A stretch of 64,000 nucleotides of DNA from Sphyrna mokarran (Eukaryota): the NCBI GenBank assembly GCA_024679065.1, contig JAGIQG010000008.1, forward strand, positions 36,208,001 through 36,272,000, in the 5' to 3' direction. This document shows, piece by piece, positions 19,061 to 64,000 of this stretch; position 1 is the stretch's first letter; every line of letters begins with the position of its first letter. Under the pieces are notes generated by a model. That model did not search any database. It was not told where the DNA came from and saw nothing but the letters and a program-made list of their open reading frames with translations. Both the position numbers and the translations under genes were made by a program.

Positions 19061-19266
19061 TAAAAACAAAATACTGCAGATGCTGGCGATCTGAAATAAA
19101 AGCAAAATACTGGAAAAACTCAGGTCTGGGAGCATCTGTGGGTTTTAACTTATCACGTTCCTGCCTGCCTTCAGTTCTGAAGAAGAATCATATGGGATTG
19201 GAAATGTTAACTCTGTTTCTCTCCTCTCAGATGCTGTCAGACCTGCTGAATTTTTCCAATACTTTC
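19061..19266. mobile_element. Miniature fold-back element (family B) with a hammerhead-like motif at 19173-19212
   Basis: AGTT-CTGAAGA-AGAATCATATGGGATTG-GAAA-TGTT-AACT followed by cagatgctgtcagacctgctg, with an inverted left arm. Confidence 0.75.
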
Positions 19267-19869
19267 TATATTGTTGTAACAGTAATTAGAATTCAATAGA
19301 TCTGTTTGTAACATTTGCTTTACCTCAATCTCTGATAATCCCATTTTGTTTTTGATTCCTTAACCAGCAGAAAAAATATAGTAATTCTTTGTTTCATATA
19401 CTAAACAATATTAATTGATCAGGTGTCAAAAGATATTTTGTGTCTGTCTAACTTGATCAGTTTTCACTTCCAAAGCTATGTTCCAGTTTCCTAGATGTAA
19501 AATTACTCTAGTTAAATTGGATTGCTTTATGGAAAAAGGGTAACAGATTGAAAAAATCACAAGTTGTTTTCTGAGTATCTGAGAGCGTAACTGGATAACT
19601 CGGTAAATGTGATAATTAACAGGTCTGCAATAATTGTCTGCATCCATGTAATAAATTATTGAATTAATTTCTTCTGTGTATGTTTCTGCATTTGGAAATT
19701 TGTACTGAATTGTAGTAAATCATTGTAGTAAATGCTAAAATACGTAAGAATATTGTAGAAAAGAATGTCTTGTTGATGGCTGCTCCAATCAGTTGGAATA
19801 TTTTAAAGATTGAAAAAATGCAGTTGCATATTTAGAGATGAAATGGGTTATCAGATCAGATATGCTAAT

Positions 19870-20498
19870 ATAGAACATAGAACATTACAGCGCAGTACAG
19901 GCCCTTCGGCCCTCGATGTTGCGCCGGCCAGTGGACCCTCTAACCTAAACTATTCCAATATCATCCATATGCCTATCCACCGAACATTTGAATGCCCCCA
20001 AAGTAGGCGAGTCCACAACTGCTGCAGGCAGGGCATTCCACGCCCTCACCACCCTCTGTGTGAAGAACCTGCCTCTGACATCCGTCCTATAACTACCACC
20101 TCTTAATTTAAAGTTATGTCCCCTCGTGTTGGTCATCACCATCCGAGGAAAAAGGCTCTCACTATCCACCCTATCCAATCCCTTGATCATCTTATACGCC
20201 TCAATTAGGTCACCGCGTAACCTTCTTCTCTCTAATGAAAATAACCTCAGGTCCCTCAGCCTTTCCTCATAAGGCCTTCCCACCATACCAGGCAACATCC
20301 TGGTAAACCTCCTCTGCACCCTTTCCAATGCTTCCACATCTTTCTTATAATGCGGCGACCAGAACTGTACGCAATACTCCAAGTGCGGCCGCACCAGAGT
20401 TTTGTACAGTTGTAACATAACCTCACGGCTCCTAAATTCAATCCCTCTACCAATAAAAGCTAACACACCGTAAGCCTTCTTAACAACTTTATCAACTT
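19870..20498 (-). mobile_element. Young CR1 3' fragment
   Basis: Intact 173-aa C-terminal ORF (LAFIGRGIE...RPHLEYC...FFTQRVVRAWNALP) and a (TGTTCTA)n tail. Confidence 0.93.
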
Positions 20499-32323: not shown

Positions 32324-32538
32324 GCTTGCATTGAGGCTCATGAAAAAGACATGGAGCTATCTTTTGCCATTCAACGTAGTAAGGATATCATATGTGGCAT
32401 CTGCATGGAAGTAATATATGAGAAAACGAATGCAAGTGAGCGACGTTTTGGAATCCTGTCCAATTGCAGTCATACCTACTGTCTCAATTGCATTCGAAAG
32501 TGGAGGAGTGCCAAGCAATTTGAGAACAAGATTGTAAA
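32324..32538 (+). CDS. MKRN1: Makorin-1 coding exon (exon 5 equivalent), most of the C3HC4 RING domain
   Basis: Acceptor tttatcccag|GCT. Encodes [34 protein letters not shown]...[24 protein letters not shown]. Donor AA|gtaagt. Confidence 0.97.
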
Positions 32539-36972: not shown

Positions 36973-37030
36973 TAAGACCTATATTCTATAACTATAACTA
37001 TTCTATAACTATAACTAAGACCTATAACTG
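36973..37030. repeat. Short tandem duplications at a CR1 5' junction
   Basis: (ttctataactataacta)x2 bracketed by two copies of taagacctata. Confidence 0.75.
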
Positions 37031-37584
37031 TACAAAACTCTAGTGCGGCCGCACTTGGAGTATTGTGTGCAGTTCTGGTCCCCACGTTATAAGAAAGATG
37101 TGGAGGCATTGGAGAGGGTACAGAGGAGGTTTACCAGGATGTTGCCTGGTATGGAGGGCAGGTCCTATGAAGAGAGGTTGAAGGATTTGAGGTTGTTTTC
37201 GTTAGAAAGGAGGCAGCTAAGAGGGGATGTTATTGAAGCATATAAGATGATTAGAGGTTTAGATAGGGTGGACAGTGATAGCCTTTTTCCTAGGATGGAG
37301 AAAGCTAGCACGAGGGGACACAGCTTTAAATTAAGGGGTATGAGTTATAGGACGGATATCAGAGGTAGGTTCTTTACTCAAAGAGTGATTAGGGAGTGGA
37401 ATGCCCTGCCTGCAGCTGTTGTAGATGCGCCAAGTTTGGTGGCGTTTAAGAGGTTAATTGATAAGTATATGGAAGAGAAGGGAATGGTTTAGTTTGGAGG
37501 AGCATTGCTTTTTATTTTGGTCGGCACAACATCGAAGGCCGAAGGGCCTGTTCTGTGCTGTAATGTTCTATGTTCTATGTTCTA
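37027..37584 (+). mobile_element. Young CR1 3' fragment
   Basis: 149-aa ORF RPHLEYC...WNALP and tail tgttctatgttctatgttcta. Confidence 0.93.
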
Positions 37585-37747: not shown

Positions 37748-38884
37748 AAGAAAATAGTTATTGACTTCATACTACAGAAAAGATGTTGAAGTTTTTGGAC
37801 AGGGTTCAATGCAGATTTACTGGGATGCCATCTGGCATGAAGGAAAACAGATATAGAGGAAATAGAGTTTATTTTATTAATTGATAAAAAAGAGTTGCTT
37901 AAAATTAGTAAAGGATGGGACAGCATGGATAAAAGTAAAACACTGTTGAGCAGTTTTGGACTTAGAACAACAGTCTTCACTCTGGAGTTCTGAACTTGGA
38001 ATTTACTTTCAGGGTTAATTGTTGATGAAAAAACTGTGTCAATTGTCCAGATTAGATTGAGTAGGCAGATACCTGGATATGGATAATGGGGCAATTAATG
38101 TGATTAAGCTTGTGTATTCACATGAATGACAATGAATGCTGGTGTTGACTGTTTGGATTGAATGGCTTGTTTGTGTTGCACATTCTATGTATTTTTGATT
38201 TTGTGGGTGAGGTATGGGGGGGCTGCAGTTACTTGAGAACTATATCCAAGCATCATTTAAAAGTATTACAATCCCAGTGATGAAATTATAAACCAAATTT
38301 ACTGAATGACTTCCAAATTAAGAAATTACCAGCAAGATTCTACTTTTTGTAGTTTTCATATTAACACAAATTGGGACCAAAACAAATTGTGTATCAATGA
38401 ACAAGCAAATTAATACAGTAATTTTCACTTTACAACAAAGGTATGTCTTAACAATCACAGGCATTCACATCACTCCTTGCACAAATGTGGTACTACATAG
38501 TTACACAGTTCCATAATATTTTGTCCTTTATCTGTTAACTGCTTTCACTTTTGAGTTTTATAGGTACAATTATCATCAGCAAGACACACTTCTACAAACC
38601 CATTCTCCATCAGATTAGCTTTTCTGAATTCCTTTCCAACTGACATTCTTCCATAACATCCTGCTCTATAATTTGGCCTCGGCTGGGGAAATCACCCAGT
38701 TCTCAGCATCTCCAAACTCTTCTCATAGCTTTCCAGATTTTTAGCAAAGCTCGGACAGTACTCCCAAGAGCCCCTGTCTCCCTTTCTGCTGATGTAGAGA
38801 TGCCGGTGTTGGACTGGGCTAGTAAGAACTCAGTAAGAATCTAGCAACACCAATTTTAAATCCAACCGATTTATTTGATAGTAA

Positions 38885-38923
38885 ATTTGCGAGCTTTCAA
38901 CACTCTGTCTTCGTCAGGCAAAC
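38885..38923 (-). ncRNA. Minimal hammerhead ribozyme motif (other PLE arm)
   Basis: Reverse complement reads GTTTGC-CTGACGA-A-GACAGAGTGTT-GAAA-GCTC-GCAAAT. Confidence 0.75.
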
Positions 38924-39581
38924 GCAGTGTTCTGGTCTGCAATAGCACACATATCAACACAGACAGTCACAGATTGCTGATTAGAATGCGAATCCTTACA
39001 TCTAACCTGCTATTCAAGTGTTAAAGTGGCTAACAATGTGTGTGAAGGGAATCCTGAGCATTGGTTAGAGGATTGCGTATTTTCTCCAGACAGCACAGTA
39101 AGTGAGGTTGTTTGCTAACCCAGGCAAGTTACGGGGGTTACAGATAGTGTGACATGGAGCCAAGATCCCTATTAAGACCGTCTTCGTGTGTGTGGAACGT
39201 GGCTATCAGTCTCTGCTCAGCGACTCTGCGCTGTCGTGTGCCCCTTGAAGAACATTTACCCGCAGGTCGGAGGCCAAATGCCCATGACTGCTGAAGTGTT
39301 CGCCCACAGGAAGGGAACTGTTTTGCCTGGTGATTGTTGAGCGATGCTCATTCATCCGCTGTCGTAGTGTCTGCATGGTCTCCCCAATGTACCATGCTTC
39401 GCGACATCCTTTCTTGCAACGTTTTAGGTAGACAACGTTGGCCAAGTTGCAAGAGTATGTACTGTGTACCTGGTGAATGGTATCCTCACGTTTGATGATG
39501 TCGTCCATGTTTATGATCTGGCATGTCTTGCAGAGGTTGCTGTGGCAGGGTTGTGTGGTATTGGGTCACTGTTCTCCTGAA

Positions 39582-40896
39582 AATCTCCAAGATTTACGAG
39601 CATTTGGAGAAGTTTAGGTTGATTAGAAATAGTCAACATGGTTTTGTAAAAGGCAGGTTGTGCCTTTCGAGCTTAGTTGAGTTCTTCGAAAATGTGACTG
39701 AACACGTTGATGAAGGAAGAGTAGTGGACGTGGTGTACATGGACTTCAGCAAGGCATTTGACAAGGTCCCACATGCAAGACTTCTTGAGAAAGTGAGAGG
39801 CCATGGGATCCAAGGGGCTTTGGCCTTGTGGATCCAGAACTGGCTTGCCTGCAGAAGGCAGAGGGTGGTTGTGGATGGCTCTTTTTCTGCATGGAGGTCG
39901 GTCACCAGTGGAGTGCCCCAGGGATCTGTTCTAGGACCCTTGCTGTTTGTCATTTTCATAAATGACCTGGATGAGGAAGTGGAGGGATGGGTGAGTAAGT
40001 TCGCCGATGACACGAAGGTCGGTGGTGTTGTGGATGGTCTGGAGGGATGTCAGAAGTTGCAGCATGACATCGACAGGATGCAAGACTGGGCGGAGAAGTG
40101 GCAGATGGACTTCAACGCGGATAAATGTGTTGTGGTCCATTTTGGCAGATCCAACGGGATGAATGAGTACACTATCAAAGGTAGGAGTCTTAGCTGTGTG
40201 GAACAGCAGAGGGATCTTGGGGTCCGGGTCCATAAGACTCTCAAATCGGCCTCCCAGGTGGAGGATGTGGTTAAGAAAGCTTACGGTGTACTGGCCTTCA
40301 TTCATCGAGGGATTGAGTTCAGGAGTCAGGAGGTAATGCTGCAGCTTTATAGGACCCTTGTCAGACCACACTTGGAGTACTGTGCGCAGTTCTGGTCGCC
40401 TCACTATAGGAAGGACGTGGAAGCTATTGAAAGGGTGCAGAGGAGATTTACAAGGATGTTGCCTGGATTGGGAGGCATGCCTTATGAAGACAGGTTGAGG
40501 GAGCTGGGACTGTTCTCCCTGGAGAGACGAAGGTTGAGAGGCGACCTGATAGAGGTTTACAAGATGTTGAGAGGAATAGATAGGGTGGACTCTCAGAGAC
40601 TATTTCCCAGGGCTGAAATGGTCGCGACGAGAGGGCACAGATTTAAGGTGCAGGGAAGCAAGTACAGAGGGGATGCTAGGGGAAAGTTTTTCACTCAGAG
40701 GGTGGTGAGTGAATGGAATCGGCTGCCGTCGGTGGTGGTCGAGGCGAACTCGCTGGGGTCTTTTAAAAGACTTCTGGATGAGTATATGGGATCCAATGGG
40801 TTTGGGGGTTATAGATAGGTCTATGGCTGAGTAGGTTTTGATGTGTTCGGCACAACTTGTGGGCCAAAGGGCCTGTTTGTGCTGTAGTGTTCTATG
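39582..40896 (+). mobile_element. Young 5'-truncated CR1 (HER1-like) LINE with an uninterrupted RT/C-terminal reading frame
   Basis: About 410 aa open frame with QHGF, YMDFSKAFDKVPH, GVPQGSVLGP, FADD and RPHLEYC, followed by a 3' UTR ending in gtgttctatg. TGAA occurs at both junctions with the host PLE. Confidence 0.95.
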
Positions 40897-41572
40897 AAGG
40901 TTGGGTAGTTTGCTGCGAACAATGATCTGTTTGAGGTTGTGCGGTTGTCTGAAAGCAAGAAGTGGGGGGGTGGGGATGGCCCTAGTGAGATGTTCATCGT
41001 CATCAATGATATGTTGAAGACTCTGGAGAAGATGTCGTAGCTTCTCCGCTCTGGGGAAGTACTGGACAACAAAGGGTACTCTGTCCACCATGTCCCGTGT
41101 TCGTCTTCTGAGGAGGTCAGTGCGGTTTATCGCTGTGGCACGTCAGAACTGTCGATCGATGAGTCAAGCGCCATATCGTGTTCCCACGAGGCACTTCAGC
41201 AGTCATGGGCATTCAGCCTCTGACCTGCGGGTAAATGTTCTTCAAGGGGACCTTCGTGACACACGACAGCGCAGAGTCGCTGAGCAGAGACTGATAGCCA
41301 AGTTCTGCACACATGAGGACAGTCTTAATAGGGACCTTGGCTTCATGTCACACTATCTGTAACCCCCGTAACTTGCCTGGGTTAGCAAAAAACCTCACTT
41401 GCTGTGCTGTCTGGAGAAAATACACAATCTTCTAACCAATGCTCAGGATTCCCTTCACACACATTGTTAGCTACTTTAACACTTGAAAAGCAGGTTAGAT
41501 GTAAGGATTCGCATTCTAATCAGCAATCTGTGACTGTGTTGATATGTGTGCTATTGCAGACCAGAACACTGC

Positions 41573-41611
41573 ATTTGCCTGACGAAGACAGAGTGTCGAA
41601 AGCTTGCAAAT
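41573..41611 (+). ncRNA. Minimal type I hammerhead ribozyme motif (PLE-associated)
   Basis: ATTTGC-CTGACGA-A-GACA(gag)TGTC-GAAA-GCTT-GCAAAT: 6-bp stem I, CUGANGA and GAAA core, 4-bp stem II and palindromic AAGCTT in place of stem III. Confidence 0.8.
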
Positions 41612-41959
41612 TTACTATCAAATAAATCAGTTGGATTTAAAATTGGTGTTGCTAGATTCTTACTGAGTTTTCCCTTTCTGCTAAACAGAAAAAGACCTCT
41701 TGACTGATTTGCTTTTCCTCCTTACAATAATTCTGTGTTCCTATTGTTGTTTCTGGCTGTTTTTTTTGTGTCTGCCTTTGTGTACTGATTTCCTTCATCC
41801 TCCAGGTCCTCTGCTTTTAGTGTTAGTTCTCCTTTTAGTATGCCTGCTTTTTCCTTAACTTGTTTCTTGTTGACACTGCTTCCGAGTTGAGGGTCACCGA
41901 ATCAAATGAACAAGTATTTTTCATTATCCAAGAAAATTAAAGTTGATCTTCTTATGGCA

Positions 41960-48855: not shown

Positions 48856-49236
48856 GGACTTAGCCTGGCTTCAAGCCACACTATCTGTAACCTCCATGAC
48901 TTGCCTGAGTTAGCAAAAAACCTCACTTACTGTGCTGTCTGGAGACAATACACCTCTCTTTAACCTGTGTTCAGTGCTCTGTCCACTCACATTGTTAGCC
49001 ACTTTAAGACTTGAATAGCAGGTTAGGTGTAAAGAATCACATTCTAATCGGTAATCTGTAAACAGTTTGTGTTGTTATATGTGCTGTTTGAGACCAGAAC
49101 ACCTCATTCACCTGATGAAGACCAGAGGCTCGAAAGCTTGTGAGTTTACTATCAAATCAATCGGTTGGATTTAAAACCTGGTGTTGTCAGACTTCTTGCT
49201 GTGTTTACCCCAGTCCAATGCCGGCATCTCTACGTC
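48856..49236 (+). mobile_element. Penelope-like 3' end (pLTR) fragment
   Basis: Colinear with 41330-41669 and ends in cccagtccaatgccggcatctctacgtc, the same terminus as 38791-38820 (reverse strand). Confidence 0.85.
49106..49145 (+). ncRNA. Minimal hammerhead ribozyme motif (PLE-associated)
   Basis: ATTCAC-CTGATGA-AGACCAGAGGCTC-GAAA-GCTT-GTGAGT. Stem I differs from the 41573 copy but still pairs (one G-U); stem II is imperfect. Confidence 0.7.
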
Positions 49237-53753: not shown

Positions 53754-53904
53754 TAAGAAGTCTCACACTACCAACAGGTTTATTTTATTTGGTAGCACAG
53801 GCTTTCAGAGTGACACTCCAAAAACTTGTGCTACCAAATAAACCTTTTGAACTTTAACCTGGTGCTGTGAGACCCCTGTCCAACGCCAGCATCTCTACAT
53901 TGTG
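53754..53904. mobile_element. Miniature fold-back PLE derivative (family A)
   Basis: Perfect 16-bp inverted repeat at 53784-53799 and 53827-53842, PLE terminus ccaacgccagcatctctacat, and 13-bp direct repeat GCTATATTTTTGG at 53741-53753 and 53905-53917. Confidence 0.8.
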
Positions 53905-54283: not shown

Positions 54284-55672
54284 AAGAACAAAGAACAAAA
54301 CAGCACGGGAAACAGGCCCTTCGGCCCAATGAGCCCACGCCGCCACCACGATGTTCCCACCTCTACCCATGATCCCTATCTATGTTTATAGATCTATGGA
54401 TTAAAAACCAAATTTGAGACAATTTAGGGAGAATTTGTTTTGCTAATTAGCCTAAGAGCACAGCTTTGGGATGTGGGAGGAAACCGGAAAACCGCAAGCA
54501 CGGGGAGAATGCGCAAACTCCCACAGACACAGGCCCAAATCCATATATCTGCACAGCACAGCGATAGTCACTGAGCTGCTGTGTTGCCCATCAAATGGTC
54601 CAGGTCAAGCGTACACTAACGACATGAAGCACTAGGATACTCTCGAAAACAATCCAAGAGCAGCCCTCTCACGACCCATCGTGTGAATGCTCCTTGTTAG
54701 ACAAGATGGACCAAAGCACCTGTAGGATAAAAACAAGTACATCAATATCAACATCTATTTACACACTTCCCGGGACTCCCAAGGCTCATGGTCCCTATTT
54801 TAAATCAGTTTTTTATACCCCTCCATTCCCATTCTGTTCATGTGCCCATCTAAGTATTTGTTAAATAACTCCAGAGTGCCTGCCTCCACCATGTTACTTG
54901 GCAGTGCATTCCATACCCCCACCACTCTCTGTGTGCAAAAACTCCCTCTAGCACCCAAATTATACCTTACCCCCCTCACCCTAAGCCCCTATCCCCTCGT
55001 GCTATTCGAATCCATCCTAGGAAAAAGCTTAACCCTGTTTACTCTATCTATACCCCTCATAATCTCGTACACCTCTATTAGATCTCCTCTAAGTCTACGT
55101 CTTTCTAAGGAAAACAGTCCCAATTTGCCTAACCTTTCCTCGTAACTCAGACCTTCCATACCAGGCAGCATCCTGGTAAACCTCCTCTGCACTCTCTCCA
55201 CAGTCTCCACGTCCTTCCGGTAGTAAGGCGACCAGAACTGGACACAGTATTCCAAATGAGGTCTAACCAGCGTTTTATACAACTGCAACTTTAAAGGCCA
55301 GCTCTTGTACTCTATACTCCTTCCTATAAAGGCTAGCATACTATATGCTTTCTTCACAACCTTCTCCACTTGCTCTGCCACCTTCAGAGATTTGTTCACC
55401 TGCACCCCAGGTCCCTCTGCATTTCTATACTCTTAATAGGTCTACCCTTTATCATATACCTCCCCCCTACATTTTTTCTCCCAAAATGCATCACCTCACA
55501 TTTATCAGGATTGAATCCCATCTGCCATCTATCTGCCCAAGCTACCAGCCTATCTATGTCCTGCTGTATCGCCTGACAATGCTCCTCACTATCTGCAAGT
55601 CCAGCCATCTTTGTATCGTCTGCAAACTTGCTGATCATTCCACTTACTCCCTCTTCCAAATCATTTATGTTC
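54284..55672 (-). mobile_element. CR1 3' portion with a long 3' UTR
   Basis: INDL...KFADDTK...NPDKCEVMHFG, a frameshift near 55400, RPHLEYC and a (TTCTTTG)n tail at 54284. Confidence 0.92.
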
Positions 55673-62455: not shown

Positions 62456-63062
62456 ATCTATTTTTGTGTATCTGGCAATCTGTTTCTCTCTAGGCGGATG
62501 CTATCCGACCTGCTAAGTATTTTCAACATTTTCTGGTTTTATTTGAGACTTCCAGTTTCTACACGATTTGTTTTTCGTGATGCAGCCTTACCAGAATTTG
62601 CTCTAAGCATCTACCACGGACAATATATCAACACAGACTTGACTCATTAAGAGAAAAATTTCTGAATGGAAATGTGCCCATATTTTCTCTATTTAGAACA
62701 TATTCATAGATTCATTAAACTAACACAAATTAGCTGACTATACAGACTTCCTTTATTGAAAGGTCTCTCAGCCTCCCTGTTGGCATATGGTATATTCCAA
62801 GAACTCTGCATTTTTGTCAAGGGCAAGGAAATTTACTTAGAGAGAAAATAAAGTAAAATCTTCATAACATTATTTGACCAAAGATTCTTATCTGCTAATT
62901 ATTTTGCAATCATTCAAAGATCTGTTTCTCTTCTTTGTGAAACAATAATTATTGGAAAGCAGCATCTTTGTATTTTCTCCAAATTCTCAACTTTTGTATG
63001 ATCACTGTGGTCAAACCAACATTGATAGTAATCTTCCACACACATCTGTCTTGTTCAAATTG

Positions 63063-63219
63063 TAACAGTTTATTTGGTAGCACAAGCTTTCAGAACGCTG
63101 CTGATGAAGAAGCAACACTCCAAAAGCTCATGCTACCAAATAAACCTGTTGTACTTTAACCTGGTGTTGTGAGATTTCTTACTGTGCCCACCCCAGTCCA
63201 ATGCTAGCATCTCCACATC
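63063..63219. mobile_element. Miniature fold-back PLE derivative (family A) with a degenerate hammerhead
   Basis: tttatttggtagca...tgctaccaaataaa around CTGATGAAGAAGCAACACTCCAAAAGCTC, plus the PLE terminus. Flanks TCTTGTTCAAATTG (63049-63062) and TCTTGTTTAAATTG (63218-63231). Confidence 0.8.
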
Positions 63220-64000
63220 TTGTTTAAATTGATGATAAATAGAACAGCCTTGGATCTGGATCACTAAGAATGACCTCAGTAGAAAAAAGTCCTTGGATCT
63301 TACTATAGCCATCACTTTCAAATTGATGCTGGCAATATTTCCCAGTACCACTAGTAGATGAAGAATATTGCAGGATAAAATAAATAATTCAGGAGACTGA
63401 AAACGAGCCCAGTTGGGCATCAGTGAACTTTGAACTGGGATGTCTGCTTGTAACTTTGAATATTTTTCATTTGGTATAGATCTGAATAGACAGCATTAGT
63501 AATTTTCTGGTACATTAGTTCCATCTCTGTTCACTCGGTGATGGAACATTGCTTGCACAAAGGTATTCGAACTACAGGGTGACAATCCTGGTGCAACATT
63601 GGTCTAGACTGGACAAGATTGAAGCCAAGACCCTTAATCAACCTTTTGAACAACTACATGACTGAAGATTGATATAGTCCAGACATATCCAGAATGTCTA
63701 CCTGCAACAACAAAAAAAACGATCAGTTCCCTGATCCTGTTCAAAAAAGCTTTCAAGACTGGCATCTCCTTTTTCTTAGAAGTCAATATTGCTATTGTAT
63801 GTAAATCTGGCCACATCCTCAGATGTTATGGGGAGTTTCTTATATTACCACTTTTCTTTCTGACATGCTGAATCCACATGTCCTGCTGCCAAGCTGTGCA
63901 GAAAGTACTGAAAATCCCAATGAACTAATGGCAAAAATATCTTAAATGATGTTGTTCTGTCCATTAATTTCTTTCATGTAAACATGGCCAACTTGCTCCA

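Follow-up and report, generated by a model that had tools for sequence, protein, structure and literature searches.

An inverted-end Penelope-like element in MKRN1 intron 5 of Sphyrna mokarran and its likely inert sense hammerhead motif

We analysed a 64,000-nt stretch of the Sphyrna mokarran genome (contig JAGIQG010000008.1, positions 36,208,001 to 36,272,000; hereafter the window) in which a Penelope-like element (PLE) lies inside an intron of the gene MKRN1. An earlier note on this DNA had suggested that the element places a potentially self-cleaving hammerhead motif in the MKRN1 pre-mRNA. We consider it highly probable that the segment is a truncated PLE inserted into MKRN1 intron 5, that it has a second, inverted end and a later long interspersed element (LINE) inside it, and that the sense hammerhead, by prediction held in a duplex between the two inverted arms, is likely inert.

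Anatomy of the insertion

The features on which the argument rests are listed by window position.

32539-53547, plus strand: MKRN1 intron 5, 21 kb, with GT..AG splice sites; it interrupts the coding sequence of the RING domain
38779-38790, no strand: left copy of the target-site duplication (TSD), 12 bp, TCCCTTTCTGCT, exact copy
38791-38826, minus strand: 3' tail of the PLE, 36 bp, at the left end only, the right arm being without a tail (tails as in PMC8557442 and PMC11167929)
38827-39298, minus strand: left arm, the 3' end of the main PLE copy (endonuclease C-terminus and pseudo-long-terminal repeat, pLTR), antisense to MKRN1
38885-38923, minus strand: minimal type I hammerhead motif, antisense to MKRN1, with C17 kept and C11.1 changed to U
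~39314-39436, minus strand: GIY-YIG endonuclease signature (PF01541, E=3e-4), 21.3 bits, slightly below the curated cut-off of 22.6
39521-39547, minus strand: C-x4-C-x2-C linker, CHSNLCKTC, between reverse transcriptase (RT) and endonuclease, of Neptune/Nematis type
39582-40894, plus strand: 5'-truncated LINE fragment nested in the PLE open reading frame (ORF), RVT_1 at E=1e-24, sense to MKRN1
40895-41190, minus strand: what is left of the PLE ORF at its 5' side, coding for sequence that follows the RT core, with the truncation near 41190
41192-41669, plus strand: right arm, an inverted, tail-less second copy of the PLE 3' end, sense to MKRN1
41573-41611, plus strand: minimal type I hammerhead motif, sense to MKRN1, with C17 mutated to U at a CpG site and a nominal cut at 41605/41606
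41671-41682, no strand: right copy of the TSD, 12 bp, TCCCTTTCTGCT, exact copy
48866-49236, plus strand: separate, more diverged PLE 3' end, 81% identical to the family; its hammerhead-like motif lies at 49106-49145

MKRN1, on the plus strand, is the host gene, as a shark makorin-1 matches the window exon at 32324-32538 with 100% identity. Since coding exons 1-2 map upstream of the window and exons 3-8 within it, the element is placed in intron 5, in agreement with the earlier note. The same note had reported a 12-bp TSD and inverted arms of about 470 bp, and both are borne out. Exact matches to TCCCTTTCTGCT occur only twice in the whole window, on either side of the element, and the alignment of the arms has 482 columns, of which 447 are identical, 21 are substitutions and 14 are gaps. 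The arms are the highest-scoring inverted pair of the window. The left arm carries a 10-bp deletion near 39240, and the right arm is joined head to head to the truncated main copy at 41190/41192 with an imperfect short overlap. The note had further placed a GIY-YIG domain and a hammerhead in each arm; the hammerhead is indeed found in both, whereas the GIY-YIG signature exists as a single copy outside the arms, which hold only the C-terminal end of the endonuclease. Along the minus-strand ORF the order is sequence following the RT core, the linker, the GIY-YIG endonuclease, then the pLTR with its hammerhead, and finally the tail. The linker has the CX2-5CxxC form given for the Neptune clade in PMC8557442, but because the Nematis linker is also Zn-finger-like it does not tell Neptune from Nematis.

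The PLE ORF is split by the 1.3-kb LINE fragment, which went unmentioned in the earlier note and which we take to be of CR1 type. It is flanked by TGAA on either side (39578-39581 and 40895-40898), holds an unbroken frame of 433 codons and is 98-99% identical to 40 scored genomic copies. As the best genomic copies are 99% identical for the LINE and 96-97% for the PLE arm, the LINE inserted after the PLE, and its insertion stretched the loop between the arms to 1.9 kb.

By its sequence, the segment is an endonuclease-positive (EN+) PLE that is truncated at its 5' side, lies on the minus strand and carries a second, inverted 3' end as well as a one-sided 36-bp tail. A DNA transposon with terminal inverted repeats was considered and rejected, as the arms consist of PLE coding sequence and pLTR and vary in length across loci. 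An assembly artefact was likewise rejected, given the TSD and the 21 sites at which one arm departs from the other.

The same layout in other family copies

To place the insertion among its relatives we searched the genome with a 270-base query, scored the best 40 of 2471 first-look candidates and fetched about 10 kb around each of 38 loci besides the window's own. It should be noted that these 38 are the closest matches to the right arm and not a random sample, which tells against reading the following counts as frequencies for the family at large. Outward-facing inverted ends were present at 19 of the 38 loci; 18 of these 19 had exactly one tail, 14 had a TSD of 9-15 bp, and at 17 loci the hammerhead region was present in both arms. 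Longer family copies hold RT and GIY-YIG in a single frame, as in copy L058, where RVT_1 (E=5e-9) is followed by GIY-YIG (E=2e-4) in one frame of 509 aa. The window copy is 95-96% identical to L058 across its surviving parts, while its RT core is gone. Taking the family copy together with the window, the EN+ PLE features that we looked for were all found: an ORF joining RT and GIY-YIG (in the family copy), an inverted pLTR, a tail at one end and a hammerhead in the pLTR. Three family copies (L042, L062 and L066) are inserted in or beside copies of the same family, which produces nested inverted structures.

Such a layout has been described before. Craig et al. (PMC8557442) report an adjoining inverted 5'-truncated copy and a tail of 30 to 40 bp in PLE insertions, Arkhipova et al. 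(PMC3846280) show an inverted pLTR, a 31-bp tail and a 9-bp TSD for Pen2a_Av, and Cervera and de la Pena (PMC4209133) describe minimal hammerheads that occur in twos, one on each strand, at distances of 100-700 bp. The earlier note had singled out the sense motif and its antisense copy in one intron; that this arrangement is special is not supported. Any insert with inverted arms yields one sense motif when it lies in an intron, so a sense hammerhead in an intron needs no special explanation. According to a bioRxiv preprint (10.64898/2026.07.22.740005), 42-44% of Xenopus retrozyme copies lie in introns, hence intronic hammerhead repeats are common. The window insertion is thus a further copy of a PLE layout already described, an ordinary and likely inert repeat. 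Judged by titles and the starts of abstracts, none of the papers found on Penelope, hammerhead and shark describes shark elements; the supplements of the cited papers may list shark motifs.

Sequence and decay of the hammerhead motifs

A strict descriptor of the minimal hammerhead gave two sites in the window, the plus motif at 41573-41611 and the minus motif at 38885-38923, and none in 200 shuffles. The plus motif is composed of CUGACGA, an additional A, a 4-bp helix II, GAAA, GC, UU and a 6-bp helix I; the cut would fall after 41605. The characters of a minimal hammerhead are all present in it, namely the core boxes, an extra nucleotide after A9, the G10.1-C11.1 pair, a palindromic 15.2-16.2 and helices I and II; the minus motif departs from this set at C11.1. 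The plus motif has only A15.1-U16.1 enclosing GC and is without the canonical helix III that lets hammerheads of the RECK type fold as monomers. An Rfam scan of the window at E<=1 returned three matches, none of them a hammerhead.

The palindrome AAGCTT, which the earlier note counted as a feature of the plus motif, is a product of decay, and we rejected it as a functional palindrome; the intact core, the 6-bp stem I and the 4-bp stem II stand as described there. The right arm differs from the family majority at 14 positions, six of which are CpG transitions, including the C17-to-U change at 41605. Exact copies of the 35-base motif in the genome number 103 with CUC and 12 with CUU. The palindrome of the family is AGCU, AAGCTT arising only through the change of C17 to U. 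It is known that U17 is slower than C17 at the hammerhead cut site; we found no measured cleavage rate for CUU against CUC in the passages searched.

Across 61 family pieces the hammerhead motif is not shielded from decay. The cells that differ amount to 7.9% inside the motif versus 10.1% outside at CpG sites, and to 2.6% versus 1.5% at other sites, and A stands in place of the catalytic G8 in 9 of 58 pieces and in place of G12 in 4 of 57.

The motif at 49106-49145 has a different helix I, a broken helix II and U17, and it was not found by the strict descriptor. The left end of the element (38791-39162) is also 81% complementary to this older PLE end, which would give that motif an antisense partner too. 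Decayed hammerhead-like cores (CUGANGA...GAAA..UU) of another short repeat family are seen on the plus strand at 19177 and 56880, in MKRN1 introns 3 and 7, with helix II unformed.

Predicted pairing of the arms

In the predicted structures the duplex between the arms reaches -865 kcal/mol, against -124 and -128 for each arm by itself. When the 2.9-kb segment is folded, 457 of the 478 right-arm bases pair with the left arm, and 37 of the 39 bases of the plus motif lie within the duplex, in support of the proposal in the earlier note that the antisense arm might pair with the motif. Even without the antisense arm, helix I of the plus motif has a probability of 0 in its own 200-nt context. The arm pair is the best candidate for double-stranded RNA (dsRNA) in the window by these predictions, and a long dsRNA of this kind could plausibly be edited by ADAR. 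No on-topic paper on adenosine-to-inosine (A-to-I) editing of inverted intronic repeats in sharks was found by titles and the starts of abstracts. Of 22 runs found for the locus, all of them contigs and none containing half of the query words, four were aligned to it. They covered its repeat parts, and their substitutions fell among all four transition types (A>G, T>C, C>T and G>A). As the unique flanks are uncovered (the bins 38200-38747 and 41762-41898 are near zero), these four runs reflect the family sequence and not the window locus.

Fate of the motif in the MKRN1 pre-mRNA

We suggest the following course of events. The antisense arm would be transcribed first, about 2.3 kb ahead of the sense arm, and would zip with the latter as it emerges. 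Since the plus motif is without helix III it would need an identical partner, and just one further sense copy that is similarly complete was found in the intron, that at 49106, which is incompatible. Splicing would then remove the intron for degradation, and some incidental A-to-I editing may come before this. What is published on related motifs goes in the same direction: a single minimal hammerhead gave no cleavage and dimers gave low cleavage (PMC4209133), and a review (PMC6765202), which also reports the claim of Lunse et al. 2017, agrees on the weak activity of minimal PLE hammerheads.

Several points weigh against an inert motif. The core of the plus motif is intact at every position save the identity of N17, and U17 is permitted under the NUH rule (PMC9217987). 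In a context of 39 or 91 nt the motif does fold to helices I and II, and it should be kept in mind that the nearest-neighbour energies leave out tertiary contacts of the core and co-transcriptional kinetics, and that the 1.9-kb loop between the arms may slow their pairing. Further, a double-hammerhead homodimer of the 41573 motif lies only 2.5 kcal/mol above two monomers, and the genome holds at least 115 exact or near-exact motif copies that are potential partners in trans.

These points bear on the possibility that the sense motif sometimes cuts the MKRN1 pre-mRNA at 41605/41606 after pairing in trans with an identical motif. The partner could be on PLE RNA or on another nascent transcript, and PLE protein, or a duplex loosened through editing, would aid the reaction. 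The intact helices, the feasible geometry of the homodimer and the supply of partners speak for it, as does the protein assistance reported for an anole PLE ribozyme; the same paper (PMC11167929) states that this hammerhead cut only with the protein of the element and that RNA-seq showed no ends where it cuts. The intramolecular duplex of the arms is, however, predicted to be far more stable. Moreover, with C17 mutated to U an A14-U17 pair becomes possible in the dimer. The resulting 6-bp AAGCUU helix is favoured by 2.6 kcal/mol over the active shape (-15.1 vs -12.5 kcal/mol). Published activity is low even for dimers, and PMC2995048 cites reporter studies in which introns were spliced despite being cut by a slow hammerhead. 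We therefore regard such cutting as very unlikely. A regulated form of it, in which the antisense arm would lock the hammerhead until abundant PLE RNA together with protein, or editing, allowed dimerisation in trans and a cut in intron 5, is a long shot. If true, this switch would favour an MKRN1 transcript of exons 1-5 without the RING-domain end, resembling human MKRN1-short (PMC9024132). More generally, inverted arms would then act as an inbuilt lock, thanks to which sense hammerheads can remain in introns. The earlier note had also named the 49106 copy as a dimer partner, which would mean a double hammerhead in cis between motifs 7.5 kb apart in one pre-mRNA. Both motifs are sense, both have AGCU so that a 4-bp helix III can form between them, and six pairs are permitted in the core whose cut would fall at 49139. 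In a double hammerhead helix I would be intermolecular, as each strand passes from one core via helix III into the other, and in the core cutting at 41605 its pairs are then C-G, A-C, C-A, U-A, U-A and A-U, with the A-C and C-A mismatches beside that core, while three of the pairs in the other core are G-U. As the 49106 motif is also missed by the strict descriptor and the heterodimer comes to +0.3 kcal/mol versus -15.1 for two separate monomers (15 kcal/mol uphill), we give this heterodimer practically no chance.

A different outcome would be that the ribozyme is inert and it is the duplex that matters, through hyper-editing by ADAR or dicing to small RNAs that measurably alters MKRN1 splicing or silences the PLE family. 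With about 470 bp at 95% identity and arms 1.9 kb apart, the best inverted pair of the window would be a fitting substrate, and rotifer PLE copies are reported to yield small RNAs (PMC3846280). Yet about 6 kb separate the duplex from the 5' splice site of the intron and about 12 kb from the 3' splice site, the same inverted layout recurs at many family loci, and MKRN1 contains further LINE pairs in inverted orientation. Editing to some degree is likely, though it would be of a generic kind, and an effect on MKRN1 is unsupported. We hold this outcome to be unlikely, and prefer the reading of a locked motif in an intron that is spliced and degraded.

Origin of the inverted arms

A variant at 41429 is common to both arms and occurs in none of 56 other family pieces, so the arms derive from one source. 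Purified PLE protein is reported to cut and extend both strands and to start reverse transcription at two sites bounding the tail (PMC11167929). We propose that the PLE endonuclease would cut the two target strands about 12 nt apart, and that each cut end would prime reverse transcription on the element RNA, one cDNA starting at the site that includes the tail and the other at the site that omits it. Both cDNAs would stop early, and their truncated ends would be joined head to head. Such two-sided priming of a 12-nt staggered cut is the simplest reading; against it stands that the priming step is only inferred, and that PMC3846280 proposes self-priming on an antisense template instead. Among the papers found for 'twin priming' together with Penelope, none that mentions pLTRs contains the phrase. 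At the tail-less ends of five family loci (L035, L039, L044, L061 and L067) the TSD appears to overlap the element end by a few bases, as would be expected had the second target end acted as a primer through short pairing; the stop point is spread across about 15 bases.

As it stands the window insertion matters little: decayed PLE insertions like it are many, and their layout has been published. The head-to-head family copies, with their one-sided tails and measurable TSDs, are of modest use as a data set on PLE priming at both cut strands. Further, a comparison of solo and inverted intronic copies by orientation could reveal whether minimal hammerheads ever harm a pre-mRNA.

Other repeats and makorin copies

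Inverted LINE pairs bracket several MKRN1 exons: 19867-20414 and 37023-37581 (80%) lie around exons 4-5, and 39957-40727 and 54900-55669 (69%) around exon 6. Long-range pairing across these exons is possible, and inverted repeats that pair across exons are of the type linked to exon circularisation. Two very short head-to-head fold-backs of PLE ends from another family are found at 63060-63222 and 53770-53900. The former is the source of a spurious mir-9 match in the Rfam scan (63064-63150, below the gathering score, overlapping this small fold-back), and contains a hammerhead-like core with GAAA decayed to AAAA. Outside the window the genome has two further multi-exon makorin paralogues (C882:117603268-117616806 and C805:46091976-46106151), with about 53-65% identity to the shark MKRN1 query.

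Comparison with known systems

The window element resembles the EN+ PLEs as presented in PMC8557442 and PMC3846280 (Penelope of D. virilis, Pen2a of A. vaga and Neptune). It shares with them a family ORF of RT and C-terminal GIY-YIG, 5' truncation, an adjoining inverted 5'-truncated copy, a tail (here 36 bp) at one end only, a TSD of about 12 bp and a hammerhead in the pLTR. Unlike them, the window copy is without a direct (tandem) pLTR on its 5' side, has lost its RT core and is split by a younger LINE.

The dual motifs on opposite strands are like the minimal hammerheads of metazoan PLEs in PMC4209133, while helix II of 4 bp differs from the 7-8 bp of the Schistosoma examples given there, and the U17 of the plus motif sets it apart from the C17 of its own family. 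With the conserved amniote intronic hammerheads, RECK and others (PMC6155905), the plus motif has in common that it is of type I and lies in a host intron, sense to the pre-mRNA. The RECK-type motifs are canonical, make tertiary contacts and are conserved across amniotes, whereas the window motif is minimal, belongs to a multi-copy repeat and shows ordinary CpG decay.

As a long, near-perfect intramolecular duplex in a pre-mRNA, the arm pair is comparable to the intronic inverted pairs of LINEs or short interspersed elements, such as Alu pairs, that are ADAR substrates. It differs from such pairs in that both of its arms stem from one insertion event.

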